A stretch of DNA of 63,988 bases, the filler included, from Malassezia furfur (Eukaryota): assembly GCA_052055015.1 (NCBI GenBank). It is 11 parts of 11 records of this genome, joined end to end, with 100 filler letters (N's around TTAATTAATTAA, not from the genome) between each part and the next. Parts side by side here need not be neighbours in the genome. Positions count along the whole stretch, not along the records: positions 6,005 to 11,901 come from JBQJIT010000574.1; positions 12,002 to 17,860 come from JBQJIT010000575.1; positions 17,961 to 23,779 come from JBQJIT010000576.1; positions 23,880 to 29,679 come from JBQJIT010000577.1; positions 29,780 to 35,548 come from JBQJIT010000578.1; positions 35,649 to 41,412 come from JBQJIT010000579.1; 5 more parts are not named here. The stretch is one strand, 5' to 3'. Of this stretch, positions 9,441 to 39,022 are shown one piece after another. The notes below the pieces were generated by a model. The model made no database searches. It worked only from the letters and a program-made list of their open reading frames with translations, and was not told the DNA's origin. The position numbers and the translations under genes were made by a program. Positions within the stretch are counted from its first letter, which is position 1, and the number at the start of each line of letters is the position of its first letter.

Positions 9441-9878
9441 CTACGAAAAGTCGCCCTTCATGAGCTTCTGCAGACGCTCGGGCGTGAGCTCAATGCCCGC
9501 CTTTTTCAGCTCCTCGACGACTGCGTCAGCGTGCGACGTACCTTTGCTCGTCGCCTGGCGCACGTCGCTCTTGGCCGCGAGGCGCGCGAGCGTGAACATG
9601 GATGGCTTCTCGCCCTTGGACAGGTCCATGCCGTGCGACTGGAGCACGTCCATGAGCTGACGGATCGCGGCAAGCGCGCCGGGCGACTCGCCGAGCTTCT
9701 CCATGCCCTTGGGCAGCGACGACGACGACGTCATCGAGTCGCGCTGGTCCTCGGACGCGCGCACCACCGCGGTCGTGTGCAGGTTGCGCGGAGACACACA
9801 CAGCGTGCGCGGCACAGCGACGCGCGGCGCACGCAGCGCCGCACGCAGCGGCAAAGTGCCCACACGGAAGGCCTGCAT
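9441..9878 (-). CDS. Small hypothetical protein with mitochondrial presequence-like N-terminus; probable 21-nt intron 9521-9541
   Basis: Arg-rich, acid-free N-terminus (MQAFRVGTLPLRAALRAPR...RNLHTTAVVRA), typical codon usage, canonical GTACGTCGCACGCTGACGCAG. Confidence 0.7.
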   Translation of the reverse strand: MQAFRVGTLPLRAALRAPRVAVPRTLCVSPRNLHTTAVVRASEDQRDSMTSSSSLPKGMEKLGESPGALAAIRQLMDVLQSHGMDLSKGEKPSMFTLARLAAKSDVRQATSKGTSHADAVVEELKKAGIELTPERLQKLMKGDFS

Positions 9879-9904
9879 CGTCGTGGGTGCTGACTCAGCC
9901 GACC

Positions 9905-11077
9905 ATGCGCCGCGGGCGGGGGGCGAGGACGGGGGCACTGCTGCTCGTGCTGCTCGCGCTTGCTGCGGCGGCGTGGGTGTGGCACACACCACCACGCACA
10001 CACGCACGCACACGCACCATCGTACAGCCCGTGTGGCGCCTGCGCGACGTGCACAGTTTCCTGGCGTCGCGGCGCGAGCGGCCGCTGGGTGCCCTGAGCG
10101 CCCCGGCGCCCGGCGCGTGGGAGCGCGTCGACGCCACGTTTCCGAACGTGAGCGACCTTCACACGCTGCGTACGCTCGCACATATGGCGACGCAGGCGTA
10201 CTACGCGACGCCCGCAGCGATCCCCGACGCGCCCGAGTGGTCCTGGGCGCACGGATTTGGGTGGGAGGACGAGGGCCTACGGGGCCACGTTTTCCGCATG
10301 GACGACGCGCGTGTGGTGGTCGTGGCGCTCAAGGGGACGAGCGCCTCCTTCCTGCCGGGCGGGCAGACGGGGCAGCGCGACAAGGAGAACGACAACCTGC
10401 TGTTCTCGTGCTGCTGTGCGCGCGTGGGCTCCGACTGGACGCCGGTGTGTGGGTGTGCGGACGATGCGCATCGGTGCGACAGCGCGTGCGTGAGCCGTGC
10501 GCTGCTGGAGCGCTCGCTGTACTACCCTGCGGCGACCGACCTGTACAACAACCTGTCCTACCAGTTCCCTAATAGCCAGGTGTGGATCACCGGGCACAGT
10601 CTCGGCGGCGTGCTCGCGAGCTTTTTGGGCATGACGTTTGGCGTGCCGGCGGTCGCGTTCGAGTCGCCGGGCGACCGCCTCGCGGCACAGCGGCTGCACC
10701 TCCCGCTGCCGCCCGGCTCGTGGTCGGACGAAGAGGCCTTTGCTCTTGCGCCGGTGACGCACGTCTACAACACGGCCGACTCGCTCGCAACCGGGCAGTG
10801 CCAGGGCCCGCTGTCGCTGTGCGGGCGCACGGGCTTTGCGATGGAGACGCGGTGCCACGCGGGGCAGAGCATCGTGTACGACACGACGCGCTACCTCGGG
10901 TGGTCCGTGGGGGTCCTGGCGCACCGCATCACGCAGGTCATCACCGAGCTCCTCACCGAGGACTGGGAGGCGCGCGCGCGGCGGGCAGGGCGCGCGCCCG
11001 CCGACGGCCTCGGGGCCGTGCCGCGGCCGGCGCGCGAGACGCTGTGCCAGGATTGCAACAATTGGCAGTTTACCTAG
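9905..11077 (+). CDS. ATG15: Atg15-like lipase (class 3) with N-terminal signal anchor
   Basis: FGWEDEGLRGHVF, VVALKGTS, DKENDNLLFSCCCARV, WITGHSLGG, AVAFESPGD, METRCHAG. May be a paralogue rather than the orthologue. Confidence 0.85.
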   Translation: MRRGRGARTGALLLVLLALAAAAWVWHTPPRTHARTRTIVQPVWRLRDVHSFLASRRERPLGALSAPAPGAWERVDATFPNVSDLHTLRTLAHMATQAYYATPAAIPDAPEWSWAHGFGWEDEGLRGHVFRMDDARVVVVALKGTSASFLPGGQTGQRDKENDNLLFSCCCARVGSDWTPVCGCADDAHRCDSACVSRALLERSLYYPAATDLYNNLSYQFPNSQVWITGHSLGGVLASFLGMTFGVPAVAFESPGDRLAAQRLHLPLPPGSWSDEEAFALAPVTHVYNTADSLATGQCQGPLSLCGRTGFAMETRCHAGQSIVYDTTRYLGWSVGVLAHRITQVITELLTEDWEARARRAGRAPADGLGAVPRPARETLCQDCNNWQFT

Positions 11078-11078
11078 T

Positions 11079-11599
11079 CTACTCGAGCGACGCATTGTAC
11101 GCCTCCTCCGAGAGCAGCTCGTCGAGCTCCGCGGGGTTCGTGAGCTTGATCTGCGCGAGCCAGCCGTCGCCAAGCGGCGACTTGTTGACGAGGCCGGGCT
11201 GGTCGTCGAGGTCGACGTTGGACGCGACCACAATGCCGCTCACCGGCGAGTAGATGTCCGAGGCGGCCTTGACCTGGGGTGAGTTCGCACACGTACCGAC
11301 TCGACCGAGCCAATCTGGTCGCCGCGCGAGGCCTCGAGCTCAAGCGGGGGCAGCTCAATGTACACGACATCGCCCAGGCTCTCCTGCGCGTGGTTCGTGA
11401 TACCGATCGTGCCAATGTTGGACTCGTCGTCGTAGCGCACCCACTCGTGCTCGGGCGTGTAGAAGGTCTGCACGCCAAGCACCGTGCGCGACGTCTGCAG
11501 CGAGCGCACAGGCATGGCAAACGAGGGCGCAACGCGCGGCATGGCGCGCGGCGCGGCACGGAGCGCGGGCACAGCAGCAGTACGCAGAGCAGCCAACAT
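11079..11599 (-). CDS. GCV3: Glycine cleavage system H protein; intron 11274-11296 (23 nt)
   Basis: [28 protein letters not shown]. Splicing restores the lipoyl motif [16 protein letters not shown]. Confidence 0.95.
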
Positions 11600-11653
11600 G
11601 ACGACAGGACGGAACCGGCGCCGGCGTGGGGACGCGTCGCTACTTCGGCCGAA

Positions 11654-11901
11654 CTACAGGACAATCGGGTCGTGCCGCGTGCCGGTTGGCCGTGCGCGCG
11701 GCGCGTCGCGTTCGCCATCGCGCGCGTCGTCGCGCTCGTCGCGCTCGTCGTCGCTGTCAGACACGACGATCGCGTCGCGCTCTGCCGCTTCGGTCGCAGC
11801 GCCAATCGCGGCCGCCTCAGACGAGCTCGCAGAAGCGCAGGTCTGCGCATCGCGCGCGCGGCGCACGGCCGCCTCGGCCGCAAGCTCGCGCAGCGGGCGG
11901 C
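11654..11901 (-). CDS. 3' end of an unidentified gene (acidic low-complexity tail)
   Basis: Frame ending ...AIVVSDSDDERDERDD...HDPIVL* at the contig edge. Confidence 0.4.
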
Positions 11902-12001
11902 NNNNNNNNNNNNNNNNNNNNNNNNNNNNNNNNNNNNNNNNNNNNTTAATTAATTAANNNNNNNNNNNNNNNNNNNNNNNNNNNNNNNNNNNNNNNNNNN
12001 N

Positions 12002-12379
12002 CGCGCACCTTGCGTCGCTCATCGACGAGCGCGGCGCGCGGACGCGGGCCGAGGAGCGCGCGGCGATCCTCGACAAGGAGGTGAGCCGGCTGAAGCGGCG
12101 CGTCGCCGACCGCGACGCGGGCGGCGCCGTGCGCAAGCGTGGCGCCGGCGACGAGAACACGCACCTGGCGTACCTCGACAGCCTGCTCAAGTGCTCGGCG
12201 TGCAAGGAGCGCTACCGCGACCGGATCATCACCAAGTGCCTGCACACCTTCTGCGAGGCGTGTGTGAATGCGCGCATCCAGACGCGGCAGCGCAAGTGCC
12301 CGCACTGCGGCCTGTCGTTTGCGATCAGCGACGTGCAGGTGCTCTATTGTACGTCGGCGCCACTGACCCAGTGCAATGA
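12002..12379 (+). CDS. BRE1: E3 ubiquitin ligase Bre1, C-terminal RING, 5'-partial; intron 12349-12371 (23 nt)
   Basis: LKCSACKERYRDRIITKCLHTFCEACVNARIQTRQRKCPHCGLSF. Splicing gives the end DVQVLYLQ*. Confidence 0.9.
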   Translation, partial: RAPCVAHRRARRADAGRGARGDPRQGGEPAEAARRRPRRGRRRAQAWRRRREHAPGVPRQPAQVLGVQGALPRPDHHQVPAHLLRGVCECAHPDAAAQVPALRPVVCDQRRAGALLYVGATDPVQ

Positions 12380-12395
12380 TGTATTTTTACGAAAC

Positions 12396-14074
12396 CTACG
12401 GCGCGAGCTTGTAGAGCAGGTCGATGAAGCGCGTCGCCATGTCGCCGATGAGCATCGGGCCGACCGCGGCGCTCTGCCCCAGACCGTACACGGTGGCCAT
12501 CGTGCCCGGCTGCGCGGGCTTCGTGCGCGAGTGCGCCACGGCCTCCTTAAGGTCCGCGACAAACTCGTCGACCACCGGCACGGTGAGCCGCGTGCACGCC
12601 AGGTGCACCGCCGGCGCGTCGCCGGCGATCGCGTTGAGGTGCCAACCGCGCTTGCTCATCTGGTCGCCCACGTCGTACACGTTGATCGCGCCCGCGCTGC
12701 CGATCGCAAACGTGCTCACGAGCGGGTGCCCCAAAATGGTCAGCTCGGGGATCTCGTCGCGGATGCGGCGCTCGATCGCCTTGGCTGCGCCGACGATCTG
12801 CTTGCACGACTCCGTGTATCCGTCCTGCCCCATCGCCACCATCACCGCCCACGTCGCAGCGATCAGCGCGCCGGGCCGCGAGCCGGCGAGCGTCGGCGAG
12901 GCGTACACACCGCCGACCCACGCGGGGTTAACGTAGTACTGGTAGCGGCGCAGCTCCTCGCTGTCATACATGACGACCGACGAGCCCTTCGGCGCGAAGC
13001 CGTACTTGTGCGTGTCGCACGAGATCGACGTGACACCCTCGACACGGAAGTCAAACGGCTCCGTGACGAACCCGGCCCGCTCCAAGAACGGCACGAGGAA
13101 CGAGCCGAGGCAGCAGTCGACGTGGCACTTGATGCCGTGCCGCTTCGCCAGCGCACCGAGCGCCACAATGTCGTCAATCATCCCGTCGGGGAAGTTGGGC
13201 GCACTGCCCACCAGCAGCACCGTGTTGTCGTTGATCGCACGGCGCACCGCGTCGATCTGCACCTTGCGCGAGACACGGTCGACAGGCACGCGGCGCACCT
13301 TGATGCCAAAGTAGTTGCCCGCCTTGTCGAACGCGACGTGCGCGCTCATCGGCACGACCATCTCGGGCTCGGTGATGCCGCGCTCGGCGTGCGCCCAGTC
13401 GCGCGCCGTCTTGCACGCCATCAGAATCGACTCGGTGCCACCCGAGGTGGTCGTGCCCGCAGCGCCCGGCGGCGCGTTGTACATGTCGAGCACCATCGCA
13501 ACCACCTCGGCCTCCATCTTGCGCACCCCGGGGAACACGTCGGGGTGCAGCGGGTTCGACAGCAAGAAGCGCCGCAGCGCATCGACGATCACGCGGCTCA
13601 GCTCGTCGCCGCCGTGGTACACGGCGCCCGAGCAGCGGCCGTCGCGCCAGTGCCGCTCCGAGTCGTCTCCCTGCTTCCCGAGGTGCTGCAGCACGTCCAG
13701 CTGCTTGTCAATCCAGCGCTCGTCGCGCCCATGCACCGGCAGCACCCGCATCGTCGGCACCGTCGACGGCAGAACGAGGTTCTGCTCGAGCTGGCCCGTA
13801 GCCGCCGACATCTCGCGCTCGACACGGCGCCGGTTCGCGGGGAGCTTGAGCAGCAGCCGCATCACGGAGCGCGCTACGGTGAGGTAGGTGTTGTACGCAA
13901 CGCCACGCACCCCCTCGGCCCGCACCGTGCGCACCCAACGCCGCGAAAAGTGCAGCACAACATACAGAAGAGCAAGCGTGCGCGCTACAGAATAAGCTCC
14001 TGGTTGACACACACACCATGGTCGTACGTCACTACTTGGCGTACCCAGCCGGCCCGCGCATCCTGGGCCGTCAT
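12396..14074 (-). CDS. DPL1: Sphingosine-1-phosphate lyase; probable intron 13985-14016 (32 nt)
   Basis: SGAVYHGG, SNPLHPDVFPGVRKMEAEVV, TSGGTESILMA, HVDCCLG, SISCDTHKYG (PLP lysine), GSRPGALIA. Confidence 0.93.
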
Positions 14075-14142
14075 CGTCCACGGCCAACCCAAAGGGTAGG
14101 GCTGCCGCAGCCCCAAGCTTAACCACCACGTGGAGGCACGTG

Positions 14143-14755
14143 TTACCACTCGAACTCGCTGTGGGTCAGCCGGGCGCACGTCGCCTACGCACCCATTGCA
14201 CTTCGAGAAGAGGTAGTCGCGCCCGCCAATCGACGCTACACCGTCGCGCAGGACACACTTCCACTTGTTTTTCACACGCTGCACCTTGTCGTAGAGACAC
14301 AGCATCATATCTTCATTGCCGTCCGCGTCCTCCTCCTCGGAGTCGTCCAGGTCCGAGCCGATCTCGTTGCTCGCCGCATCGTCGTCGTCCTCGTGCTTCC
14401 GCTTCGTACCCGCCGTAGCACCGGACGAGGCAGACTTGCCGTCCGCAGACGCCGCCTCTTCCTTCGGCTCGGTCTTGGCCGGCTTCGCGTCGGTGGCGCG
14501 TGCGGTCGTCGACGTCGACGTCGAGGCGACCCCAGGCGTCGTCGTGTATTGCACAGGCGGGCGCGCGCCGGGCACACTGCCGTTCGCGCCGTCGAACTCG
14601 GTCACCTGGGTCGCGACGAGCTTCGCCTCCCAGCTGCGCTGGAGCTCCTCGAGCACCTCCTTTTCGATGCCCATGTCCTCAAAGTCCTGTCGGACGTTTG
14701 CGATCACATCGTCGATGATGTGCCGAAACGTCAAAGACACTACCTTGTTGCTCAT
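14143..14755 (-). CDS. TOA1: TFIIA large subunit; intron 14159-14192 (34 nt)
   Basis: IIDDVIANVRQDFEDMG...WEAKL; LGSDLDDS-like acidic stretch; MLCLYDKVQRVKNKWKCVLRDG. Splicing gives CNG|EFEW*. Confidence 0.95.
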
Positions 14756-14943
14756 CGCAGCCTACTGCCGCAACTCGAATTCGGCGGGGGACATACAACG
14801 CCGCTGCTTGCTCCACAACGTCCCTGAACCAAGCGACGAGCGACGCCCGCGCGACGCTGCAGTGCGCCCGCACGTGACGTGCGCCGCGCGCCCGCCCAGT
14901 GCGCGGCGCATCGTGCGCGGCCGAGCCTCCTTCTTCCGTTGAC

Positions 14944-15759
14944 ATGGCGTCCGAATACCGGGTGGGCGACGTGGTGCTCGCCAAGATCCGCGGATTCCCC
15001 GCGTGGCCAGGGATCATTGTCGATGACGCCGACGTGCCGGCGGCCGTGCGCGCCGAAAAGCCGTCGAGCAAGCAGGCACCGCTCTTCACCATCCGCTTCT
15101 TCCCGGCGGCCGACTACCACTGGGCGACGCCGCGCGACCTGACGCACCTGTCGACGGACGACATCGACGCATTCCTTGCCTCCCACAAGAAGTCGGGCGA
15201 CCTACAGAAGGCGTACAAGCTCGCACGCGACCCGCACACATGGAACGCGGAACAGACGGCGGCCGTGCGCGAACACGACGCGGCGCTAGCGGCCGCCGAC
15301 GATGCGGCCGCGAGCGAAGAGGCAGACGAAGCAGAGGACGATGCGCCCAAGAAGCGCAAGCGCGCCGCGCCGGCCGCCGCGCGCAAGAAGCGGAAAGACT
15401 CGCTCGAGCCGCCGGCGGCCAAGGAGGAGCCCAAGGAGGAGGCCGAGGAGGAGCTCGATCCGCAGACCAAAAAAGTGCGCGAGTGGCGCCACAAGCTGCA
15501 GCGCGCGTTCCTCGCCAAGGACGGCGTGATCCGTGCCGAGGATATGGACGCGCAGGACGCGACGCTCAAGATCGTCGAGGCGTACGACGACATTACCCCC
15601 GAGCAGCTCAAAATCACCAAGATCGGCAAGGTGATCAAGCGCATCCACCAGTTGCCCGAGATCCCGCGCGACGACGAGTTCCATTTCCGCGAGCGGGCAG
15701 GCGCGCTGATGACCAAGTGGAGCGCCGTGCTCGGCGCGCCGGCGCCGAGCGACGCCTAA
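14944..15759 (+). CDS. PWWP-domain chromatin protein with C-terminal TFIIS-N/IBD-like helical domain
   Basis: YRVGDVVLAKIRGFPAWPG; WRHKLQRAFL...LKITKIGKVIKRI. Confidence 0.88.
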   Translation: MASEYRVGDVVLAKIRGFPAWPGIIVDDADVPAAVRAEKPSSKQAPLFTIRFFPAADYHWATPRDLTHLSTDDIDAFLASHKKSGDLQKAYKLARDPHTWNAEQTAAVREHDAALAAADDAAASEEADEAEDDAPKKRKRAAPAAARKKRKDSLEPPAAKEEPKEEAEEELDPQTKKVREWRHKLQRAFLAKDGVIRAEDMDAQDATLKIVEAYDDITPEQLKITKIGKVIKRIHQLPEIPRDDEFHFRERAGALMTKWSAVLGAPAPSDA

Positions 15760-15873
15760 CATGGTGCGCCGGTGTGGTCTGTCGTACATCGTATATATCG
15801 TGTTCCCGAGCACAGATGGCCCGTGTTTTGGCTATGTATCTCCCCCCTCGTCCTCGCGCGCCGCGTGCGCAGC

Positions 15874-17860
15874 CTATCCCCCAACGTCCCCGGGCGAATC
15901 GAGCGAGAGCGGCGGCACTGCGCTGGTGCGCAGTTGTCCTCCGCGCGGCGTCCGTAGCGTTTGCGGCGATATCAGCAACGAGTCGGTCTCCGCATCGTGG
16001 GACGTCGCCTCTTGCTGGGCGTGCACACGCACCTCGCTCTCGAGCTCCTCGATGCGCGCGCGCAGGTCGAGCGTGAGACGCTCGAGTTTGGCGGTGCGTG
16101 CGTGCGCCTTGCGCACCTCCTCGGCGTTGTACGCCGCCGCGCGTGTCGGCCGCGTGAGCTGTGGCTCGGCGCGGTCGTGCGCCGGGGCGACGACGGCCTC
16201 GAGCAGCCACGTCTGGTTCGCCGCGAGGCGCTCGGCCTGGCGTGCGGTTGCCGCGCGTAGCGACGCGAGCTCGGCGGTGAGCCGCGTGTTTTCCGTGGTG
16301 CGCTGCTCAAGCAGCGAGCGGTAGCGGTTGGCGTTCGCCTCGCTGTTGGCCACGGTGAGCTCCATTTCCTCCCACCACGAGAGCATCTTGTCCATCTCGC
16401 GGCTCTGTAGCTCGTACTTGCCCAGATCCTCTTCCCAGTCCGCCATGCAGTTGCTTAGCTTCTGCACGTTGGCGCGGTACGTCTCGATGCGCTCGAGCTG
16501 CGGCTGTGCACGCGCCAAATCCTGCTCGAGCTCGAACAGGCGCGTGCCCATCGCGGTGATCTCGGCGGCCTGCGACGCGTTGGTGGTATTCGCGTCGCTG
16601 AGCTGCTTGAGCAGGCTCTGCCGCTCGGTGGCCCACGAGCGCCGCTCCTCGCGGTAGGTGTTCAGCTTGGCGTTCAGCTCGCGCTCCCACTGGATGTGCC
16701 GCTGGCTCACGGCCTGCGTCTCGGCGCGCTGGCGCTCGGCGCGCGTCTGCGCAGCCTGCAGCTGCGTGCGCAGCGTGCGTAGGGTATGGTACAGACTCTG
16801 GTGCTCGGCCTCGGCGGCCGCGTCCGCGATCCGGTCACGGTGCAGGCGCCCAATGTGGAGGAGCAGCTGTTCCTTGAGGTACAGCTCAAACTTGTGCTCG
16901 ACCTGCAGCAGCGTCGCGTTGGCCGGGACGTGCGTCGCGAGCAGCGCGTCCGCATTGCCGATCTCCTCGCGAGCGCCGATGCACAGCGACATGCACGACG
17001 CGGTCAGGTCCGACGCGTCCTGCTGTGCCCAGCGCTTCGTGTTGCTCAGCTCCGTGGACGCGTCCATCTCGACGAGCAGCGGGTGCGCCGCGTGGCCACG
17101 CAGCAGCGCGAGCGACGACGTACGCACCGCGTTGGCGTCCAGTGCGCCCGCGTCGCGCCCGTCGAGGTATGCGGCCGGCGTGCGCAGAAACGCGACCAAG
17201 TTGTTGGGGAACAGGCCGTACAGCAGCGTAAAGAGCAGCGACACGCACACCGTCACGGCGTCCTCGGCGGTGCCGCGCCGCCACGTCACCGCGCGGGCGT
17301 ACACGCCAAAGAGCGCCGGCACGCCGCCCGCGCCGCCCTTGACCACGTACTGCGGTACGTGCGGCAGCACCATCACGACGCACTTGATCCCGAGCGACAT
17401 GGCGCGTGTCGAGTGCGTGTGCTGCAGCACGTCAATGACGCGGTCGAGCAGCGGCGTGCTGGTGATCCGGTAGGTGTGCATCGACTGCGCGTGCAGGAAG
17501 CTCGCGAGCAGGTACAGCACGGGGCCCTCCGTGGGCGTGTCGTGCAGCGTACGTGCGAGCGCCGCAAAGAAACCCGAGGGGTCGTAGGCGCTGTACAGCG
17601 CAATGGCCATCTCGAGCTCGCGGCGGAGCGCCGCGTGCGGCGGCGTCGCATTGGTGCGCGGCGCCGCGTCCGGAGTCGCGTCCGGGGCGTGCGCCGTCTC
17701 CTCGTCCGCGGGGAGCGGCGCGAGCTCTGGCTGGTGCGCGGCCAAGTCGACGTAGAGCGAAAACACCGTGTCGACCAGCGACGGCGGTGCAGGCGCCGCG
17801 GGCGGCGGCGCCCCCGCCGCCGCAGACGTGGGCGGGGTCGGCGCGACGGTTGGCGCCGCG
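15874..17860 (-). CDS. TSC1: Hamartin (Tsc1), 5'-partial
   Basis: LFTLLYGLFPNNLVAFLR, HPLLV, FELYLKEQLLLHIGRLHRDRI, followed by a long coiled coil. Confidence 0.85.
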
Positions 17861-17960
17861 NNNNNNNNNNNNNNNNNNNNNNNNNNNNNNNNNNNNNNNN
17901 NNNNTTAATTAATTAANNNNNNNNNNNNNNNNNNNNNNNNNNNNNNNNNNNNNNNNNNNN

Positions 17961-18866
17961 CGTCCGAGGCCGGTGCATCGCCCTGGGCGACGCCGGCGGC
18001 GCGCGCCGCGCCGGCCGCGCGTGCGGCGCACACCGCCCAGGACGAGCTGCCGCCGCTGCTGTCCCCGGACGACGTGGTGCGGTGCACGACGCTGGAGCAG
18101 CCGCGGCTCACCTTTGACCTGCAGGAGGCCAAGGCGTTCCTGTGCGCGCGCGACCCCCGCTTTGTCTCGCTGTTCGCGCAGATGGACCTCAAGACGTACG
18201 AGGAGCTGCGCGACGGCGAGGTCAAGGAGCTCAACCTGTTCCGCGTGCTCGTTACCTCGATCCTCGGCCAGCAGATCTCCTGGCTTGCGGCCCGCAGCAT
18301 TCTGTACAAGTTCTGCCGCGTGTTTGCGCCGCACCTCGACGAGAAGCCCGACTTCGCGACGCTGAACCGCGACAAGCTGCCGTTTCCCACGCCGCACGTC
18401 GTGCTCGACGCGAGCGACGAGCAGCTGCGCTCCGCGGGCCTGAGCGGCGCCAAGATCAACTACGTGCGCGACATTGCGCGGCGCTTTGCCGACGGGCGCC
18501 TGGACGTGCGCCGCATCGTGCGCCTGTCGCACGACGAGTGCATCGCCGAGCTCACGCAGGTCAAGGGCGTCGGCCGCTGGACGGCCGAGATGCTGCTCAT
18601 GTTTGCACTGCGCTCGCCCAATGTGCTGCCGGTGGGCGACCTGGGCGTGCAGCGGGGTATGGTGCACTTCTACATGAGCGGGCCGCAGGGGCCGCGGATC
18701 AGCGAGCACAAGCGCAAGGCGGACGCCGACGCGGTGCCGCTGGCGGTCGAGGGGGATGCCTCGGCACTGCCGCTGCCGAGCACGCACCTTGACCTGGCCG
18801 CCCTGCGCTCGCGCGCCAACGGGAACAAGACCAAGAAAAAGATGTACCTCGACCCGCACGAGATGG

Positions 18867-18900
<34 letters not shown>

Positions 18901-18940
18901 CGTGGCGTGCATGTTTCTGTGGTCGCTGATCGGCGACTAG
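17961..18940 (+). CDS. MAG1: DNA-3-methyladenine glycosylase (HhH-GPD/AlkA family), 5'-partial
   Basis: SILGQQIS, FPTP, GLSGAKINYVRDIA, VKGVGRWTAEM, LPVGDLGVQRG, WAPFRSVA. Confidence 0.9.
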
Positions 18941-23879: not shown

Positions 23880-24733
23880 TGCGCGACACGACAATCGACT
23901 CGGCCGCCGCCGAATTGTCCGCGTCGGGCATCTGGACGAGCGTCACTTCGCGCTGCGCGGTGAGGTTCGCGGCGAGGGGGCCGCTGCGGTACGCGGTCGC
24001 TTTGAGCATGTACTCTAGGTGCCCGAAGTCGGCGTGCAGCGTCGCCGGCAAGTCGATAGGCAGCGACATGCTAAACGGGTACTCGTATGTCCCCTTGCGC
24101 AATTCGAACCACTCGGCCGCCGGCGCCTTGCCGGGTGCCGCTGTTTCGGCGGTGTCGGCGGTCGGTGGGCGCGTGGGGATGCGCAGACCATCAAGGAAGC
24201 CCTTGAGTGGCCTCTTCTTGGGCGCACCGTTCGGCATGCGCGCTGCGAGCGCCGCGTGGGCATCCGAGTGCCGCTCCCGCCCTATGTCGTCGAGGCGCGT
24301 GAGCAGCGCTCCATTGCCGTGCGCCTGGGGCCCAGGCAATGGCATCGACTCGGGCTGGATCGATTCGGGGATGCGGTCGAGCGCAATGGGCGTGCCGAGC
24401 GTCGAGCGAAAAATGCTCGTCTTGAGGCGGAGCAGGGGTACCTGCTCAGCCACTTCGAAACGGTTCTGCCCGATGCCTGGGTAAGCGGTCGGCGTACCTT
24501 CGGGCCAGTCGGTGCGCACGATTCCGGTGAGCGTAAGCACAATGTCCTTGATGCGCGTCGGTTTCGGCAGCGAGAGCGTGACTTTGCCACGGAGCTGAGG
24601 AGGCGGCGCATCGTGGTCTTCCACGATCGACGGCCCCCGGTCCGGCCGAGGGCCAGACAGAAACACGACCGGCTCTGCAACTGCGTCAGCACACACTCGA
24701 CGCACACTCGATTTGCAGTGTAGGGCCCACCAT
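23880..24733 (-). CDS. Alpha-arrestin, 3'-partial; introns 24681-24705 (25 nt) and 24477-24497 (21 nt)
   Basis: LQIEF|AEPVVFL, LRGKVTLSL, RTDWPEG|IG, GTYEYPFSMSLP, LPATLHADFGHLEYMLKA. Confidence 0.88.
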
Positions 24734-24893: not shown

Positions 24894-25941
24894 ATGTCGC
24901 TGAAGAGCCAAGCTGCACTGCCACCATTGCTCATTAGCGCCAAGCAACTCTCAGGGTTGATGGGTGCGCAAAATCCGCCGCGCATTCTGGACGCGACATG
25001 GTTCCTCGGCGCGCCGGGGCAGCCACCGCGCAATGCGCACGCCGAGTTCCTCCGTGGGCCGCGCATCCCCGGCGCCCTGTTCTGGGACGTGGACAAGGTC
25101 GCGACGGTAGGTCCTGAGGTGCACAACCTCCCGCACATGATGCCCTCAGGCTCTGTCTTCGCAAAAGCCGCGAGCGAGCATGGGATCGGACCTGAAACGC
25201 ACGTTGTGGTCTACGTACGTCGATGACTCACCTAGGACACGCATGGGTGCGTCGCTCACCGTCTCACGCAGCATCTTTTCCGCGCCGCGCACGGCATTTA
25301 CGTTTGCTGCATTCGGACACAAGGCCGTGTCGGTGCTCGACGGAGGTCTTCCCGCGTGGATCGACGCGGGTGAGAAGATCGACACGGCATCGCTGAGCGC
25401 TGACCCCTCCGTGGAGCCGGTCGAATATCCCACGCCAACGCTGCGCGATGGATGGATCCGGTCGTTTGACGAGATGCTCGCCAACACCAAGCTGGGCTTC
25501 CGAAGGCAGGTGGTGTTGGATGCCCGGGCGAAGGCGCGCTTTGACGGCCACGTTGCCGAGGCGCGCCCAGGCCTCGCATCTGGGCACATCCCGGGCGCGC
25601 GATCGCTGCCGTTCATGGACGTGCTCGAGCAGCACACGGCGTCGGATCCGCGGGCGTCGGAACGGAAGTACGCGACGCTCAAGCAGCAGTCCGATCTCTG
25701 GAAGCTCGTCAACGCCGCGGTCGGCGGCGACGACGGGATCGAGAAGCTGCGCCACGATGGAAGCTCGAGCGGGTCGCTTGGCGTGTCGTTGTCGTGTGGT
25801 AGCGGTATGACGGCGAGCGTTCTGTGGCTGGCGCTGCAGCAGCTCGGCGTGAACGCAGCGATCTACGACGAGAGCTGGATGGGCTGGGGCCGCCGCGGCG
25901 CGGACGGCGAAGCGCCCGTCGAGGTGACGCCCAAGGAATAG
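24894..25941 (+). CDS. TUM1: Mercaptopyruvate/thiosulfate sulfurtransferase (tandem rhodanese); introns 25215-25235 (21 nt) and 25247-25271 (25 nt) around an 11-nt exon
   Basis: ILDATWF, RIPGA, LPHMMP, spliced VVVY|DTHG|IFSAPR, SGHIPGA, active site SCGSGMTA, YDESW. Confidence 0.92.
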
Positions 25942-26710: not shown

Positions 26711-28109
<1,399 letters not shown>

Positions 28110-28130
28110 ACACCCGTAGACGCTACCGTA

Positions 28131-29048: not shown

Positions 29049-29138
29049 CGAGGTGCGGGGTGGGTCGCACGTGGGGCCACGTGACGCCCGCGCTCAGGAC
29101 ACACGACGGCCTCGGCTGCCCCGCAAGCGCTCCACACC

Positions 29139-29679: not shown

Positions 29680-29779
29680 NNNNNNNNNNNNNNNNNNNNN
29701 NNNNNNNNNNNNNNNNNNNNNNNTTAATTAATTAANNNNNNNNNNNNNNNNNNNNNNNNNNNNNNNNNNNNNNNNNNNN

Positions 29780-30574
29780 CGTCCGCGTCCATACGCAGGC
29801 GGCGCGCATCCACCTCGGCGGACGTCGGCGCACTCGCAAAATAGTACCGCGGACGCACCGCCTCGGCGAGGCGCGCGAGGGCCTCGACGCCCCACGGCTC
29901 CGCCTCGGGGGGTTGCGCGACCGACGACAGCCGCGTAATGCGTTTCGGCCATGCATTCGTCAGCAAAAAGTCGACCGGAACACGCTGCGCCAGACGCGCC
30001 GCGTCCTCCGCGGCTCGCTCGGCGTACGCGGCCAGCGCCGCGGCGTGTGCACGCGCCGCCTGCAGACTATCGGCTTCGACGTCGAGCGGCGGCGGCGCAT
30101 CGACGAGCGCGAGGCGGGGATCGCTGAGCAGCGTGTCGACCGCATCCATCGGATCGAGTGAGCTCTCGGCGTGCGTGGCGCCGCTCCCGCCGCAGAACGC
30201 GATGCGCATACCGTCGACCTCGGCCAGACCGACGCGGCCCAAGTAGTAGAGGTGGGGGGCCAGCTGCTGCACGCCGCCGTCATCCCGCACGTTGATGCCC
30301 TCGGGCAGCGCACGCGTCCCGTGATAGAAGTAAGTCGGCACCGCGACTGGGTCAGCGTCGCTGTACGTACGGGGCAGCTCGCCTGCGAGCAATCTTCGCG
30401 CGTCGCCGTCCAGCTCCGTGCCAAACAGGTCGCCGACGACAAACGCCGCGGAAAACGGTCCATGTTTCGCCTGGATCGCACCAAGTTTGCTCGACAGCTC
30501 CGCACAGCGGCCGTCGGGCGCGCCGAGGATCAGCCTGCGTCAGTTGCACCCACGCACACTTTGCGCGCTGCCAT
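29780..30574 (-). CDS. CWF19-like 1 / Drn1 protein, 3'-partial; introns 30535-30557 (23 nt) and 30347-30370 (24 nt)
   Basis: KV|LILG...AIQAKHGPFSAAFVVGDLF...VPTYF...LYYLGRVG...VDFLLTNAWP...RPRYYF. Confidence 0.85.
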
Positions 30575-30622
30575 CGCCGAAGCGTGAATCTCCACCTCCA
30601 CCTCCCCGCGTTGCTCGTTGTC

Positions 30623-30929
30623 ATGGCGTCGATCGAGGTAACGCCGTCGCGCGTCGCGCCCCGTGGCCCGGACCCTGCTCGGTAGGTCGCCCCCCTGACC
30701 CAGTGGCGTGTACTTCAAGCTGGCCTTTTTCTCCATCGCGCTGTTTTTCGCGCCGATCACCGCGTACTACTATGCCAAGGACCGTTTCCTGGGCGGCGAC
30801 GCCGTGTACGCCGGCGGCCTTGCCGCCGTCGTTGCCAACGTCGTGCTCTTTGGCTACATCCTTGTGGCATGCCTCGAGGACGACGGAACCAAGGCCAAGG
30901 CCAAGGCTGCCGAGAAGAAGAGCGAATAG
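30623..30929 (+). CDS. VMA21: V-ATPase assembly factor Vma21; intron 30682-30703 (22 nt)
   Basis: VYFKLAFFSIALFFAPITAYY...AGGLAAVVANVVLFGYILVACLED, with C-terminal KKSE (KKxx ER retrieval). Confidence 0.9.
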
Positions 30930-30941
30930 ATGTACAATACA

Positions 30942-31610
30942 CTACAGGACTATACCGTCGCTCACGGCAGGATGCCGCGGCGGCCGCGGCGGCACGACGC
31001 GCCCGCCTGGCGCGGGAATCGGACGTGGCGCAGGAATCGGCAGCACAAGCCGAAACGAGTCTTTGCCTGCGTGAGACGCACCACGCACCATTTAGGTAGA
31101 ATCGGTAGAGGCGCTTTTCGCGCAGGAAGCCAAGGCGCTCGTACAGTCGCAGTGCCGCGGCATTGTCGACCTCGGTTTCGAGCACAATCTCGGCCGCACC
31201 GCCCTGCACCATTTCATCCACGGCGCGGCGGATGAGCTGTGCACCGATACCGTGCCCACGCCAGCGTGGGTCGACACTCAACATTGCAATGTAGCCCCGC
31301 CAGAGTCGCGCGCCGCGCATGTGCCGGTCGAGGCGGCCGATGATCACACCTACCGCCGTTTCGTTGTTTTGTGCGTCACGAATATATGCCTGCGTCAGAG
31401 AGGGGCGTACGAGGAAGCAGAGATGCGGCCTGGGTGAGCGGGGCACGTACCATTGGTGCAGAAAGTAGCGGTACGTATAGATGTTGTACGGCTCGCTGGT
31501 GTCAGAGAGCTGGCGTACCTCAGTTCGGTCTCGATGAGCCGCATAACGTCGGGAAGCGACGGTGCGCCGTCGTACACACGCAGCGACACCTCTGGATGCG
31601 GCGTCGACAT
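30942..31610 (-). CDS. MAK3: NatC catalytic subunit (Naa30); introns 31496-31518 (23 nt), 31430-31450 (21), 31390-31410 (21), 31067-31088 (22)
   Basis: Spliced LIETELS|EPYNIYTYRYFLHQW|PHLCFL|AY...RGYIAMLSV...RGHGIG...LETEVDN...LYERLGF...RFYLNG|KDSFRL. Confidence 0.93.
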
Positions 31611-32051
31611 GCACACAGGTTGGCCAGAAGATGACATGCAAATTGCTCCACTTTCGCCCAATTCCCCAAACGGAGTGACAGGTCCGTGCACCGACGGTAG
31701 GAGGACGGTCTGCCATGCTGCTCTGAATACTCGTAATTGCCTGGTCGCAGAAAGGAACAGGAAGCTATCCGCCCTCTCAACATAGCTATAAGAGCGCGCA
31801 GTCTGTGCGGCAAGCCGTGCAGGAGCTATTTGATGTCGTGCATAGACCGTCATGATGGCGCCCCACGCGAGGAACCCTTCCTCTTTGGGCACGTCCCATG
31901 TCCCATCTTCGCCCCGAGCCTCCCCTGCTCGTGCCGCGCCGTGCGCTTGCCGGCATCAGCAGCATCACCATGGTGCCTCTGTGCGGATGGGGCACTTCTG
32001 ACTAAGCGGCGCACGGACTAGCGAGGTCGGATTCTACCACCATTCCCCAAC

Positions 32052-33005
32052 ATGTGGCTCTTCGACCTCTACGTCAAGTTTGTGGTGTTCTGGCTTTCGT
32101 ATGCACTACGCCTGCATGACTTTATCAAGATCAAGCTCACTGAGAAGCTGCGCCCTCTTGTGCCCGGCGTGCGCGTCGAGTACATCAAGATCCCTTCCCG
32201 AGACGAGGGCCGCTTCATCCCCGCCATCCGGTACACGCCCGAGGGTGCGACGGGCGCGCTGCCTGTCCACGTCAACTTCCAGGCGTCTGGATGGGTGCTA
32301 ATGCGTCTTGGGCTGGACCGCTACATGCTGAGCCTGTTTGCCAAGCGCCTGAATGCGACGGTCATCGACGCGGCGTATCGGCGTGCGCCCTGGTACCGGT
32401 TCCCCTCGGCGCAGGACGACTGTGAGGATGCGACAGCGTACGTCTTTGCGAACCCGTCGCTGTACGACTCGTCGCGTGTGACGCTTGGTGGCTCGAGCGC
32501 CGGCGGCTGCATGGCGCTGGTGACGGCCGCGACATTTGGCCCGTCGAAGATCAAGGGCGTGTTTTCGCTGTACCCCGTGACGCGGATGGAGCGCCATGCG
32601 GAGATGAAGAAGCACAAGGTACAGCTGAACAAGAAGTTCCACAGCGGGATTGTGATCCCGGCGTGGATCATGTCCTTCTTTGTGCTGGCGTACGCGAACG
32701 GCGATGAGGCCGAGCTGAACGACGTGCGGTTCAGCCCATTCAAAGAATCTGTATCCAAGTTCCCCGAGCACATTCTACTTGCGTGCGGCGACGCCGACAC
32801 GCTCTATGGCGACGGCAAGGTGCTCATCGAGAAGATCCACCGTGAAGGCTCCGAGGGACAGAAGAAGAACACCGAATTCCTTTCGATTCCGGACGAGGCG
32901 CACGAGTTCAACAATTTCCCACAATCGCCGCACTCGGTGGAATGGCGCGACAAGCTGTACGAGGCCGCCATTGCCAAGCTCCAGGCGGCCTGGGCGCGTC
33001 CGTAG
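32052..33005 (+). CDS. Alpha/beta hydrolase (HSL/abhydrolase_3 family esterase), tandem copy 1
   Basis: VHVNFQASGW, YRRAPWYRFPSAQDD, GSSAGG nucleophile, DADTL, EAHEF. An upstream exon cannot be excluded. Confidence 0.88.
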   Translation: MWLFDLYVKFVVFWLSYALRLHDFIKIKLTEKLRPLVPGVRVEYIKIPSRDEGRFIPAIRYTPEGATGALPVHVNFQASGWVLMRLGLDRYMLSLFAKRLNATVIDAAYRRAPWYRFPSAQDDCEDATAYVFANPSLYDSSRVTLGGSSAGGCMALVTAATFGPSKIKGVFSLYPVTRMERHAEMKKHKVQLNKKFHSGIVIPAWIMSFFVLAYANGDEAELNDVRFSPFKESVSKFPEHILLACGDADTLYGDGKVLIEKIHREGSEGQKKNTEFLSIPDEAHEFNNFPQSPHSVEWRDKLYEAAIAKLQAAWARP

Positions 33006-33072
33006 GAGTGGCACGTGATCAAGGACCGGCGCTTCTCCACAACCGGCGCCGGCGTTTCTCCGCACCACGAAT

Positions 33073-34118
33073 ATGGCGCAGGCAACGCGACCGGAGCTCC
33101 CGGCTGTGCACCATGCATGGGGCTTGCACTATATCTGGCTGTGGATCAAGGTGGCGTTCCTCCGGCTGGTCGCACGCTACACTGTGCATGCCACCGACCA
33201 TCTGCGTCCGCAAGTCGGCGACGATGTGCGGGTCGAAAAGATTCACTTCCCCTCGCGCGATAAAGGGCGCTCGATCGTGGCGTATGTATACACGCCCGTG
33301 GACCTGCCACCTGGGCCGCAGGCTGTGCATGTCAACGTGCACGGTGGTGGATTTGGTACGTGCTTTGTCTGACCGCAGCGGTGCCCGCCTTCTATGGCAA
33401 CTCGCGCTACTTTTGCTACTTGGTTGCGTCGCAGCTCCGCTGTGTGGTGATCGACACCGACTACCGCAAGGCGCCCGAGTATCCGTACCCGTTCCCGACG
33501 CGCGACGTGGAGGACTGCCTCGTGTGGGTGCAGACGCAGACGCAGCGCTTCAACCGGAACCTGATCACCATGAGCGGTTTCAGTGCGGGTGCGAACCTGG
33601 CGCTCTCGACGGCGAACAAGGTGGGCCCCGAGGTGGTCAAGGCGGTGGTCGCCTACTACCCCCCGACGGACGCCACCACCGAGACGGCGGCGCTCGGCCT
33701 GCGCGAGCACCCCGACCCGCCGGAGTCGGCGCGCAGCGGAGCGCACCTGGTGTCGTGGGTGTTTTCGACGTTCTTCCAGTCGTACCTGCCGCCGCACGTC
33801 AGCCCTGCGATCCCCGAGGTGAGCGTGCTCTTTCTGCCGCTCGAGCGCTACCCCGAGCACCTGTTCTTTGCTGCGGGCCGTTGCGATGTGCTGCACGAGA
33901 ACTCGAACGATTTCTACCAGAAGGTGCAGGCCGAGGGGCGCCCCGCGCAGCGCATGCGCACGCGGTTCATTAGTGTGCCGAACGAGGACCACGCGTTTGA
34001 CGAGCAGCCGTCGTGCCCCGAGTCGGTCGCATGGCGCGACAAAATCTACGACGCGGGCGTCGCGACGATCCGCGCTGCCCAGGACGAGGAGCGGGCCAAG
34101 CTGCGTGGTGCGGCGTGA
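33073..34118 (+). CDS. Alpha/beta hydrolase (HSL family esterase), tandem copy 2; intron 33356-33378 (23 nt)
   Basis: VHVNVHGGGF|AVP, DYRKAPEYPYP, GFSAGA, CDVL, EDHAFD. Confidence 0.9.
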
Positions 34119-34123
34119 GCGCA

Positions 34124-35548
34124 TTACCACAAGAAGCGCTGCCAGCCCTCGGTGCCTTCCCATGTAAAGGGCCGATAGAGGAAGACATAGATCGTGGCGA
34201 CATTGATGGCCGTGTACCAGACCAGCTCGAGCACCACGGCGGCGAGCGCGCGGGGACGCACGATCGTTGCGCGCGCGACCTCGAGTCGCAGCACAATGTA
34301 CGGCAGGACAAAGTAGCGCGGCTCGAGCAGCGGCGTCGGCACGACGGTCAGCGCCAGCGCCGCTAGGAAACCGGCGAGCCAGTAGGCACAGCGCGTGTGG
34401 CCTGGGTCAGTAGCGTCGACGTACGCAGGGACGACATCCACAGCAGGCCGCTCGCAACGTACGCGGGCACGAGCGCGTAGCGCGACCAGGGCGTGGCGTC
34501 AATGATGCGGCGCCACACGTAGAACGTGTAGTGCCGGTTGTCGGCGAGCAGGAAGGGGTGGACGTAGGTGCCGACGTACACGCCGACGCACCCCACCGCC
34601 GACAGGGCTACCCAGAGCGTCACCGCACGGCGGTCGATCCGCACCGGGCGCTGCCATAGTGCGCACGCGAGCCCCGGCCATCCGAAAAAGAGGGCAAACG
34701 CGAAAAAGTAGCCGAGCTGCGGCACATGGAACGCGAGCTGGTGGTGCGCCTTGTCGCCGAGCGCGATCGCGCCGCCGTTCCACACGACGAATGCGGCAAA
34801 CAGGCCGAGCGTCGGTACGTACGGCAGCGCAATGTCGATCAGCGCATGGCGCACTGCGCGCTGCTCCAGGAGCGGGCGGAGCGGCGGGGCCCTGGACCAT
34901 GCGAGGCTCGGCGTGCGGCGGCGCAGCTCGGCGAGGAGCGCCTGCCCGAGGATAAAAGCGACCCACACCACGTTTGTCTGGCGCACGGTCATGGCCACGA
35001 GGCCCATGATCGAGGCAAAGAGGTGCTGTTGTGCCTCGGCGAGCGTCATGGCGACGAGCACCAGCACGATGCTCGTGACGTCCGTGTAGTACAAAAAGCC
35101 AAAGAAGTACAGCGGGGGAATCGTGGCCACCACAAGCCCCACAAGCGAGCGGTACATGGGCGCGTAGCGCGACAGCGACGGCATCGTGATGCCGAGGTAC
35201 ATGTCGATGAGCAGCGGGAGCGCCATGAGGCCCGCAAGCGACACGGTGCGCAGCATCGTCAGGCGCGTGCAGTCCGTGTCCCAGCCGCCGAGGTACCCGA
35301 TCCGCTGGTACACCAGTGTGAGCCAATAAAGACCGGGCGGCGTCGTGACCTGCGGATCCGGCGTCCAGGCGCGCCGGCACATGAGGACCGCCTGCGGCAC
35401 ATGGAAAATTTCGTCCTGCATCAGTGCGCAGCGCCTACCATGTACGGCTCCGGCACGATCGAGTCTACGAGTTGCTTGACATGCGCGCCGTACCGCGCGA
35501 GCGACAGGCCGCCGCCGACCTGCACCAGCAGCGAGATGACCGGCAGCA
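34124..35548 (-). CDS. ALG10: Alpha-1,2-glucosyltransferase Alg10/Die2, 5'-partial; introns 35416-35438 and 34402-34424 (23 nt each)
   Basis: VPEPYM|DEIFHVPQA, TTPPGLY, FLYYTDV, RQTNVVW, WNGG..LGDK, HPFLLADNRHYTFYVWRR, PLLEPRYF, WQRFLW*. Confidence 0.93.
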
Positions 35549-35648
35549 NNNNNNNNNNNNNNNNNNNNNNNNNNNNNNNNNNNNNNNNNNNNTTAATTAA
35601 TTAANNNNNNNNNNNNNNNNNNNNNNNNNNNNNNNNNNNNNNNNNNNN

Positions 35649-36968
35649 CAGGAAACTCGAGCGGAAGCGATTGGCCGGTGTTTTGGACGGCGGTGCAGCG
35701 GTGGGCGCGGGCGGCGCCGAGGGCGCAGCGTCGGTGGTGCGCTGGCCCACGGGCTTGAGCGCCACGGGGAAGGCGCTTGCGGGCTTGGCGGGCGCCGCGG
35801 GCTTGGGCGACGTCGGACGCAGCGCGGGCTTCGCGGGCGCATTCGCCGCGCGGCTCGGCTTGATCCACTCGCCGTCGGCCTTGCGTGGGGCGGCGTGCTG
35901 TGTGCCGCTGACGCCCATCTCTTGCGCCAGCGCCTGGCCCACGCCGCCAAAGCTCGGCATCGTGCCGCCCTGGGCGTCGAGGCTCTTTTGCGTCTTGTCG
36001 AGCTGCTCCGGGTTGAACTCGAGCTTGCCGACGAGGTCGTTGACCTTGTCGGAGCGCCCGAGGTGCGCCATAAAGTGGCTCAGCGCATGCAGGCAGTACA
36101 CCACCTTGGGAAAGTTTTTCTTCTCGTACAAATCGGTCAGCTCGAAGCGGAAGCAGTTCGGCAGGCGGATCTTGTCGGCGAACTGGAAGAAGTAGTTGAT
36201 GTTGTCCGTGTGCCGGAACTGCAGCCGGGGGTGCACAAAGATGCGCGGCACGCAGCTCGGCTCAAACGACTTGGCCAGCTTGGCGAGCGCAATGCCGTTG
36301 CGCATCTCCTCGCCCATGTTGGCAATGTCGCCCCCGAGCGACTCGCCGATGCACCGCTCGATCCACTGCTGCGCCTCGCTGCAGTGGCACAAGTACTCGT
36401 ACGCCTGCAGCTCGTTGTCCGCGACGCGCGCACCGCCGGCCGGCAGCGGCGGCACCCGCGCGCCCGCGTCCTTGGACGCGAGCGTCGCGAGGCCCTGGCG
36501 CGACGCGCGCATGCGCGCCAGCTCGAGCTCCTTGCGCGACGACTTGCTGCGCACCATCACGGACGACTCGCTCGACGCAGGGTTGCTAAACATGCGCTTC
36601 GCCGACGCATAGTTCGACTCGGTGCCGCCCGTGCGGGTGCCGCTCTTGGGCGTCGGCACGCGGTGTACCGGCTCCGCCTTGCTCTTTTCCGCGCGCGCGC
36701 GCTGCATGAACGGATTGGCGTGGATGCCCTTCTCCAGCGGGGCGGCCTCGCCGTGCGCGCGCGCCGAGCGCGTCGGCAGGGGGTACGCGCGCGCCGCGGG
36801 GTCCGCCGGCGCGCGGTTCTGGTCTTCGTCCTTCGTGGGCACGGGGCGGAGCTTGGCCAGCATCCCCGTCTTGCCCGGCTGCGTACTCGAGTCCACCACA
36901 GCGTTTCTCCGCTGCGCGCCGTTGGACTGCAGCGGCTCACGCAGCAGCGTGCGCGGCGGCACGCTCAT
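35649..36968 (-). CDS. IQG1: IQGAP (calponin-homology N-terminus), 3'-partial
   Basis: LQAYEYLCHCSEAQQWIE, MRNGIALAKLA, LQFRHTDNINYFF, FELTDLYEKKNFPKVVYCLHALS. Confidence 0.9.
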
Positions 36969-37048
36969 CCTCGGTCGTACGCGAGGAGAAGCGCCGCCGG
37001 ACATAAACACAACAACACTCCACGCGCGGCGTATCACGTGACATTACC

Positions 37049-37726
37049 CTACAGACCCGAGAGGCGCTGCGCGAACCGGTCGCGGAAGCTCGCGTAGGCG
37101 TTCATGATGGCTGTGTGAGGCAGCGACGTACTCTGCTCGGTGATCTGCACCTCGATCGAGTCTGGCCGCGGCCGCGTGACGCGGTTCGCGATCGCCGCGC
37201 TGTCCGTCTCGAGAATGATGCTGCACGGTCAGACGCCCGACGTACCCGTCGTCGACGCTCTCGTCGATCGCGAGCGTCACCAGGTCGAGGTTGTCAAGCA
37301 CGGTGCGCTTGTCGATCTGGCTCTGAAGTAGCACCGAGAGCGCCTCGTAGAGCGACATCATGAAACTGTGCATCATCAACTCGTTTTCGCGCTCGGGCGC
37401 AATCACGAAGAAGTAGACGTCGTACGAGCTCTTGAATAGCACGAGGTTGCCGTCGTACTGGAACAGATCCCCAGACGCCCGCCGCGCCTTGTCCCACACG
37501 GCATGCTCCAGCGCACGCTGCTCCTTGTGCGTGGGGTACGGATTCCGCGCGCCAAGCGCCCCGAGCCCGGGCGTCGCCGGCGCCGTCGGTGGATGCTCGC
37601 TGATCGTCTCCTGCGGCGGCTGGAAGTATTTCGCGAGGATCCGGTTGCCCTCGGAGTCGAGCAGGAGCACTGGCGTGAGGCACGTCACCTACCTGCGCGC
37701 GTCGTATACAGCGTCAGGTTCATCAT
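37049..37726 (-). CDS. RET3: Coatomer zeta subunit; introns 37670-37692 (23 nt), 37221-37245 (25), 37111-37131 (21)
   Basis: NLTLYTTRA|VLLLDSEGNRILAKY, ENELM, DKRTVLDNLDLVTLAIDESVDDG|IILETD, ITEQT|IMNAY. Confidence 0.93.
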
Positions 37727-37771
37727 CGCACGCAGCAAGCCGGAATTCGCTGACTAAAATGGACGCACGAC

Positions 37772-39022
37772 CTACGGCGGCGCGGCGAGCTGCGCGGCAA
37801 GCAGCACGCTCAGCACGCTCCCACCCAACAGCAGCGAGAACGACGCGGCAAGCACAAAGCGCGCCGTGTCACGCGGCGTGAGCAGGGGGCGCAGGCGGTG
37901 CACGAGCGCCAGGCGGGGGCGGCGCACCACCTGCACCGCCTTTTCGTCTATCGGTGTGTCGTCGCGCGGCGTCGCGGCAATGTCGAGCGCGTGCGCGTGG
38001 CCAGGCAGCGACGCGTACGACAGCGCACGGGCGTCGCTTGACATTGCAGGCGCTTCGGTGAACAGCACGCTGCTGCTCGCCAGGACGGTCTGCGCCCGCA
38101 CGGCAGGACACGTCAGCGGATAGGTCCGTAGCAGCGCCTCGGCGCGCGCGAGGAGCGCGTGCCGCGCCGGTTCGGTGTCGAGCGACGGGACCTTGGCGAG
38201 CGTGTGGTGCACCTCGGGCATGTCGAGCGCCTCCAAAGGCCGCCGCGCGGCGGCTGCGGCCTGGGCGAGTGCGGGTTTGTGGTGCAGTGTGAGCGCCGCA
38301 GCGACGTACAGCATCGCCGGCGCGCCGTGGCTCAGCACAAAGTCGAGCAGACACTGCGCGCTGTGCACGTCCGGCACGTCGTGTGTCAAGAGCGTCAGCA
38401 CCCACGGCAGCGCCGCCAAGTTCTGGCCGGGCGTAAACACACGCTCGAGCGCGAGCGCGTACGGCAGGTCGGCGGCCCGCACAATGTTGCGCACAATCTT
38501 GAGCTGGCCAAGCACCGGGTCCATGTTTGACGCCATGCTGTCGCGCACGACGTGCAGGGCGAGAGAGTCGACGGCGCGCTGCACGCGGTAGCGCTCCCTG
38601 GTGGTGGGCCATGCCGCGTCGCTCGGCGGCGTGCCGGGGCTGAGCGTCAGGAGCACGATCGAGGCAATGTCGTGGAAGCCCTGGTAGTAATGCAGCGCGG
38701 GGTACTGCCGGAGCGTGCCGCACACGACGGCCTCAAGCTGCGCGCGCCGGCGCGCACGCACGCCCTCCTCGGTTGTCTCGGCATACGTGCCAAAGCTGCG
38801 GCGCACATCGAGCGCGACTTGCGCCTCGTCGCGGTGCGCCGGAAGCGCCGCACGGCTCGGCAGCATCGCCGCGAGCGGCGCGTCGTCTTCGTCAGCGTTG
38901 ACCTCGACCCGGAGCAGTCGGAGCCTGCGTCAGTCGTGCACGTACCATGCATGCGGCCGGTCGATCCAGCGTGCGTCCCAGCCGCCGCGGAGCGCCGCAG
39001 CTGCCGCCCACGCCTCGTTCAT
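37772..39022 (-). CDS. Rab-GAP TBC protein, Gyp8/TBC1D20-like; intron 38925-38945 (21 nt)
   Basis: HRDEAQVALDVRRSF, LHYYQGFHDIASIVLL, ALPWVLTLLTHD, C-terminal TM. The intron holds an in-frame TGA; splicing gives RPHAW|LRLL. Confidence 0.85.

Follow-up and report, generated by a model that had tools for sequence, protein, structure and literature searches.

Tiny introns are known from ciliates, microsporidia and myxozoans (PMC13644364), PMC identifiers being cited here for portions of each source. In Stentor coeruleus, introns have a fixed length of 15-16 nucleotides (nt), with a putative branch adenosine at position 10 or 11, no strong branch consensus and altered ends of Cwc25 and Isy1 (PMC9505925). 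Yarrowia lipolytica is intron-poor and its introns are rather long, with a TACTAAC branch motif and no floor on the 5' side (PMC2483917), while myxobolids and dicyemids have ultra-short introns (median 22-27 bp) with reduced splice-site motifs (PMC13644364). Within Malassezia, short introns are already in print, with 5,350 curated introns in M. sympodialis, a mean length of 30 bp and RNA-seq support for 99% of them (PMC5389616). Here we analysed a stretch of 63,988 nt of joined contigs (hereafter, the window) from the skin yeast Malassezia furfur (assembly GCA_052055015.1), in which seven candidate introns of 21 nt place the putative branch adenosine at position +16 from the 5' splice site, and we compared them with candidates from the rest of the genome.

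The M. furfur introns resemble those of Stentor in being tiny GT-AG introns with the putative branch adenosine 5 nt from the end and with conserved U2 and U6 boxes, but differ in a one-sided distribution of branch positions starting at +16, a strong CTNAC motif and a near-canonical start of Cwc25 (PMC9505925). Indeed, neither the near-fixed length of 15-16 nt nor the adenosine at +10 or +11 is seen in M. furfur, where lengths run from 21 nt upwards and the adenosine lies at +16 or later. The fused branch point-AG of Yarrowia, in which the AG lies 2 nt beyond the branch motif, leaving 5 nt after the adenosine, and a pyrimidine tract is lacking (PMC2483917), is matched: the branch-to-AG distance is short, there is no pyrimidine tract, and distances of 3-4 nt are rare where they were allowed. 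Myxobolids and dicyemids share with Malassezia the ultra-short introns and the host-associated, compact genomes, whereas M. furfur has strong donor and branch motifs (PMC13644364).

All seven stretches, which are the only 21-nt candidates inside the window, read GTACGY-N6-CTNAC-N-YAG with 5 nt remaining after the adenosine, in agreement with the preliminary description of this DNA; one of them carries CTTAC, inside the set of C, G or T given there. Only the stretch at 25215-25235 is on the plus strand, the other six being on the minus strand. GT...AG ends with G at +5 occur in 7/7, the YTNAY branch motif is complementary to the GUAGUA of U2, and genes for U2 and U6 were found. Most probably, then, the seven belong to the ordinary major class (U2-type) of spliceosomal introns and have been compacted in Malassezia down to two lower limits. 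Introner elements, recognizable as recent similar copies at new positions, do not fit, as the spacers are unrelated and the intron positions of the MAK3 gene are common to distant basidiomycetes.

Five of the seven are supported as predicted introns independently of the motif, by gaps against homologues or by in-frame stops. In the MAK3/NAA30 gene, two 21-nt introns flank a micro-exon of 19 nt (31411..31429, minus strand). The one at 31390..31410 (minus strand, phase 0, following residue 52 in the M. furfur protein) is stop-free and corresponds to an exact gap of 7 residues against homologues, and its position recurs in other basidiomycetes at 23-79 nt. The other, at 31430..31450 (minus strand, phase 2, at residue 45), is likewise stop-free and recurs elsewhere at 24-80 nt; the best-matching solved NAA30 structure, like the fungal homologues, lacks exactly the 7 residues it would encode. 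In distant basidiomycetes sharing these positions, the introns measure 44-80 nt. In the arrestin-N gene (24477..24497, minus strand), the 7 residues that the intron would encode are absent from 9/10 homologues, the tenth having an insertion of 11 residues at that site. The intron at 25215..25235 (plus strand), in a rhodanese/TUM1-like sulfurtransferase gene, would leave two in-frame stops if retained, and excision of 25215-25235 together with a 25-nt intron at 25247-25271, on either side of a micro-exon of 11 nt (25236..25246, plus strand), gives a single open frame. The intron at 38925..38945 (minus strand), close to where a RabGAP-TBC gene begins, contains an in-frame TGA, and its removal yields an open frame from an upstream ATG, assumed to be the start codon. 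Moreover, an eighth stretch with the adenosine at +16, a putative intron of 23 nt with 7 nt to its end, was identified from the motif at 39551..39573 (plus strand).

The genome-wide census covered 903 kb (84 tiles of 10 kb plus the window), with donors limited to the GTR type and branch positions inferred throughout from the CTNAC-type motif; 516 candidates were obtained, of which 506 were kept after the removal of 10 nested ones. The assembly spans 13.7 Mb, U6, Dbr1 and SF3A2 each occur in paired copies, and long stretches are pairwise 84-91% identical, matching the double-sized M. furfur hybrids already known (PMC4634964), and among named matches of the MAK3 gene the best is from M. furfur; this M. 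furfur-like genome thus appears to be a hybrid of two subgenomes.

Among the 506 candidates, the putative branch adenosine lies between +9 and +15 in 2, at +16 in 141, at +17 in 104, at +18 in 83, at +19 in 51 and at +20 in 38, so that the floor at +16 proposed for the short introns holds for 5' splice site-to-branch distances across the sample. It also holds inside the window, where five earlier matches all begin within a longer intron. Across the whole genome, the 21-nt pattern has 637 matches, whereas its reversed form has 1; when the spacer is shortened to 0-5 nt, corresponding to introns under 21 nt, the pattern has 38 matches against 19 in the control. Of these 38, 27, including all five 20-mers, start inside introns of 21-26 nt with a donor just upstream; the 11 un-nested ones are fewer than the 19 of the control.

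In this context, the floor could have been an artefact of motif-based calling, real introns of 20 nt or less existing with other signals. The restriction to GTR-type donors and the calling of introns without transcripts leave room for this, as do the 11 short matches, which lack a better donor in their vicinity, together with three short motifs present in both subgenomes. However, when GTACGT...YAG stretches were counted without imposing a branch motif, every length from 12 to 20 nt was at or under expectation (20 nt: 7 found, about 14 expected), whereas 21 nt was fourfold above it (84 found, about 20 expected), and 2 of the 11 un-nested matches are read through in frame as coding sequence. 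In the 84 unforced 21-mers, C13, T14 and A16 occur in 95%, 95% and 94%, respectively. Altogether, we regard the artefact as very improbable. Four subgenome pairs do fall under +16, one of them nested and three being short motifs kept in both copies, which could represent either coding sequence or the ends of longer introns. These donor-plus-branch motifs of 16-17 nt (L003/L014; L002; L019/L024) were noted as such in both subgenomes, and probably are one or the other.

A second limit is found at the 3' end. The branch-to-end distance peaks at 5 nt, the smallest allowed (344/488 candidates), and from GTACGT donors the distance to the first AG is 3-4 nt in 4 cases versus about 150 at 5 nt. Given this floor of 5 nt, an adenosine at +16 in a 21-mer is a matter of arithmetic; what carries information is that branch motifs do not occur earlier, and this result stands. 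The two floors add up to 21 = 16 + 5, the commonest length being the minimum. The census thus supports +16 as a hard lower limit in the M. furfur genome, and we consider it likely that two limits, an adenosine no earlier than +16 and at least 5 nt from it to the intron end, make the 21-nt mode.

The preliminary description had gone further and suggested that a 16-nt loop might be the physical minimum of a lariat, which the comparison does not support: Stentor, with its putative adenosine at +10 or +11 (PMC9505925), shows that the lariat itself is not bounded at 16. A related explanation is that chemistry sets the floor, a 16-nt loop being the smallest lariat that the catalytic core can form or that Dbr1 can open. 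The cliff at +16 is absolute, and the internal stem-loop of U6 has a loop of 6 nt (L031:1501-1605, minus strand; L032), 1 nt above the Rfam consensus, an insertion that is absent from all 15 of the other eukaryotic U6 copies whose loop was covered; both would fit such a limit. Against it, Stentor has its shorter distances with a conserved Prp8 cavity (PMC9505925), Dbr1 retains its catalytic motifs, and the N-terminal motif of Cwc25, which is missing in Stentor, is here near-canonical. We consequently think it unlikely that chemistry is what stops the adenosine at +16. U2 keeps GUAGUA and U6 keeps ACAGAGA. The 5' end of U2 (L033:1501-1693, minus strand) and the 3' region of U6 (L031) were seen to be off consensus with 8 bp of complementarity (helix II) kept, and the two regions have apparently changed together.

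Another possibility is a recognition ruler, in which a bridge across the intron (U1 small nuclear ribonucleoprotein-Prp40-SF1, or a reader of G at +7) sets a minimum spacing, although the spliceosome at later stages could take less. G at +7 is enriched in introns with the adenosine at +16 (100/141, versus 95/243 with the adenosine at +18 or later), where A at +7 is rare (8/141), a preference that simple pairing with a uridine of U1 or U6 does not predict; furthermore, a larger share of the introns at the 5' floor also sit at the 3' floor (114/141 versus 153/243 for +18 or later). The spacer sequence, on the other hand, is free: in 31 subgenome pairs with the 16 + 5 arrangement, positions +8 to +12 are 45-58% identical, versus 100% at C13, T14 and A16. 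Nothing direct supports the bridge: no U1 RNA was matched by the Rfam model or by two patterns, searches run without a positive control. A ruler of this kind seems improbable to us. Two U1 candidates (L098, L099), with a 5' end complementary to GTACGT, were rejected as donor sites on the opposite strand, and M. globosa has a U1-C protein among curated database entries, which argues against the loss of U1. At the donor itself, C predominates at +4, GTACGT being far more numerous than GTAAGT and GTGAGT, with a canonical ACAGAGA box in U6.

Returning to the two limits, the wall at +16 would be a steric one, imposed while the spliceosome assembles or is activated, and would not stem from strain once the lariat is formed. 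The room would be taken by the helix at the 5' site (+1 to +6/7) and by the helix of U2 with the branch site (+12 to +17), which leave about 4-5 nt free; a linker of this length between the U6- and U2-paired parts, close to that put forward in the preliminary description, is supported. A deletion bias would then push introns against the wall. Human extracts require about 50 nt from the 5' site to the branch site, a limit on assembly and activation (PMC6692369). It is conceivable, at a tentative level, that assembly has been rewired in Malassezia so that the 5'-site and branch helices need no span like the approximately 50 nt of the human B complex, 21 nt being the exact footprint of the machine. 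Sequential binding, a reduced or bypassed U1, loss of RED/Smu1, U2AF65 acting as a protein bridge and the enlarged U6 stem-loop are examples of such rewiring that, taken together, we likewise hold only as a speculative option. A RED_N search gave 0 candidates, without a positive control.

Among the splicing proteins, U2AF65 is the one that appears altered. We compared 19 Malassezia-group proteins with 101 other fungal homologues, taking as conserved the columns kept in at least 90% of the latter. The conserved columns are retained in the Malassezia group at 0.62 in RRM1, 0.66 in RRM2 and 0.99 in the UHM, which argues that the change is not general fast evolution; both RRMs remain alignable to human U2AF65 (expectation value 6e-34). 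Aromatics at the RNP positions of RRMs stack on RNA. In the Malassezia group they are kept in 4/19 proteins at RNP2 of RRM1, in 9/19 and 8/19 at positions 3 and 5 of RNP1 of RRM1, and in 4/19 at position 3 of RNP1 of RRM2, the same four positions being kept in 99-101 of the 101 other homologues. Numbering of the RNA-contact residues was sought in PMC9128377 and not found there. Hence, by alignment, the RNA-contact residues of U2AF65 appear to have decayed across Malassezia. This decay agrees with the loss of a pyrimidine tract from the 3' end, and leaves the wall at +16 unexplained. U2AF65 might now serve mainly as a protein bridge, from SF1 on the branch site to U2AF35 on the adjacent AG; SF1 and U2AF35 would read the branch motif and that AG, and the pyrimidine tract would be dispensable for U2AF65.

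Mud2 of Saccharomyces cerevisiae is similar in that the SF1-binding UHM is kept and the RNA-binding part has diverged (PMC8624252). Malassezia differs from it in having both RRMs recognizable, and not the UHM alone, and in keeping U2AF35, which budding yeast has lost; U2AF35 is present in both subgenomes, intact and well conserved. Dbr1, SF3A2, SF3B4 and U2AF35 align well to solved structures, with no loss or truncation in the aligned parts. The suggestion of adapted factors is supported for U2AF, through the RNA-facing residues of U2AF65, whose change does not account for the loop size, but not for SF3B4, SF3A2 or Dbr1, which are not visibly adapted. Further splicing factors were looked for by motif in well below one tenth of the genome; only Cwc25 and U2AF35 were found, and absences there carry no meaning.

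Several points weigh against the reading of two limits and its mechanism. The branch points on which it depends are predicted from motifs, and two of the seven introns were called in the same way. The putative intron at 9521..9541 (minus strand), stop-free if retained, lies close to the 3' end of a gene without an assigned family, in which a Pfam search gave no match; that at 37111..37131 (minus strand), in a coatomer zeta gene, is also stop-free, and a homology test on this stretch found nothing. Among subgenome pairs, 21 of 127 differ in branch position, with none at 16/15, a weak test because only 2 pairs are 16/17. Aligned subgenome pairs make up about 168 kb of the census sample, so the counts are partly duplicated and incompletely independent. 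With regard to U2AF65, 6 of the 19 Malassezia-group proteins are named Malassezia, and the other 13 were placed in the group by their rank, in one case judged by eye; the remaining two of the three stacking aromatics of RRM2 are kept in 19/19, and the protein may still bind RNA. Finally, no component accounting for +16 was found among SF3A2, SF3B4, Dbr1 and the N-terminus of Cwc25.

Relatives, sampled at about 21 kb each, show how far the floor extends. In M. sympodialis (L134), five orthologous MAK3 introns measure 23-24 nt, with the putative adenosine at +17 to +19. In a syntenic Malassezia-like relative (L129-L133; 62% guanine-cytosine content, 76% MAK3 identity), introns at the M. furfur MAK3 sites measure 39-45 nt, about twice as long, and 17/21 motif candidates have the adenosine at +30 or later. 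The floor is therefore not common to all close kin; it is lineage-specific and not a universal lariat limit.

Regarding other features of the window, a cluster of at least seven introns of 23-40 nt, separated by very short exons, was observed at 42697-43371 (minus strand), in a putative calmodulin-like gene. Runs of N around a 12-base linker at 5905-6004, 11902-12001 and nine similar sites indicate that about 12 contigs were joined by spacers, so gene neighbourhoods across the joints are artificial. Outside the window, the database proteins P0002, P0003 and P0317 apparently contain translated Malassezia introns, and illustrate the mis-annotation to which tiny stop-free introns are prone.

We found no report on the 16 + 5 branch geometry or on U2AF65 decay in Malassezia in the literature covered, figures, most supplements and most subscription journals lying outside its scope. 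The portions consulted of PMC8476143, PMC10158995, PMC5209728, PMC12506658 and PMC6157073 contain nothing on either subject, and the corresponding portions of the text and supplement of PMC5389616 return 0 matches for "branch" and give no minimum size, the size plot of Fig. S8 aside.

What sets the limit on intron size is not settled: human extracts fail when the 5' site and the branch site are less than about 50 nt apart, yet M. furfur appears to place most of its branch points at 16-20. The other tiny-intron lineages compared are ciliates and parasites, and M. furfur is a workable model for the smallest possible intron. Tools for insertional mutagenesis and CRISPR have reportedly been published for this species (10.1101/638429), which makes the wall at +16 testable base by base. 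The apparent selective decay of the RNA face of U2AF65 would be an independent case of a splicing signal and its reader changing jointly. For the genus, stop-free introns of 21 or 24 nt are easily mistaken for protein, and Malassezia gene models are affected.

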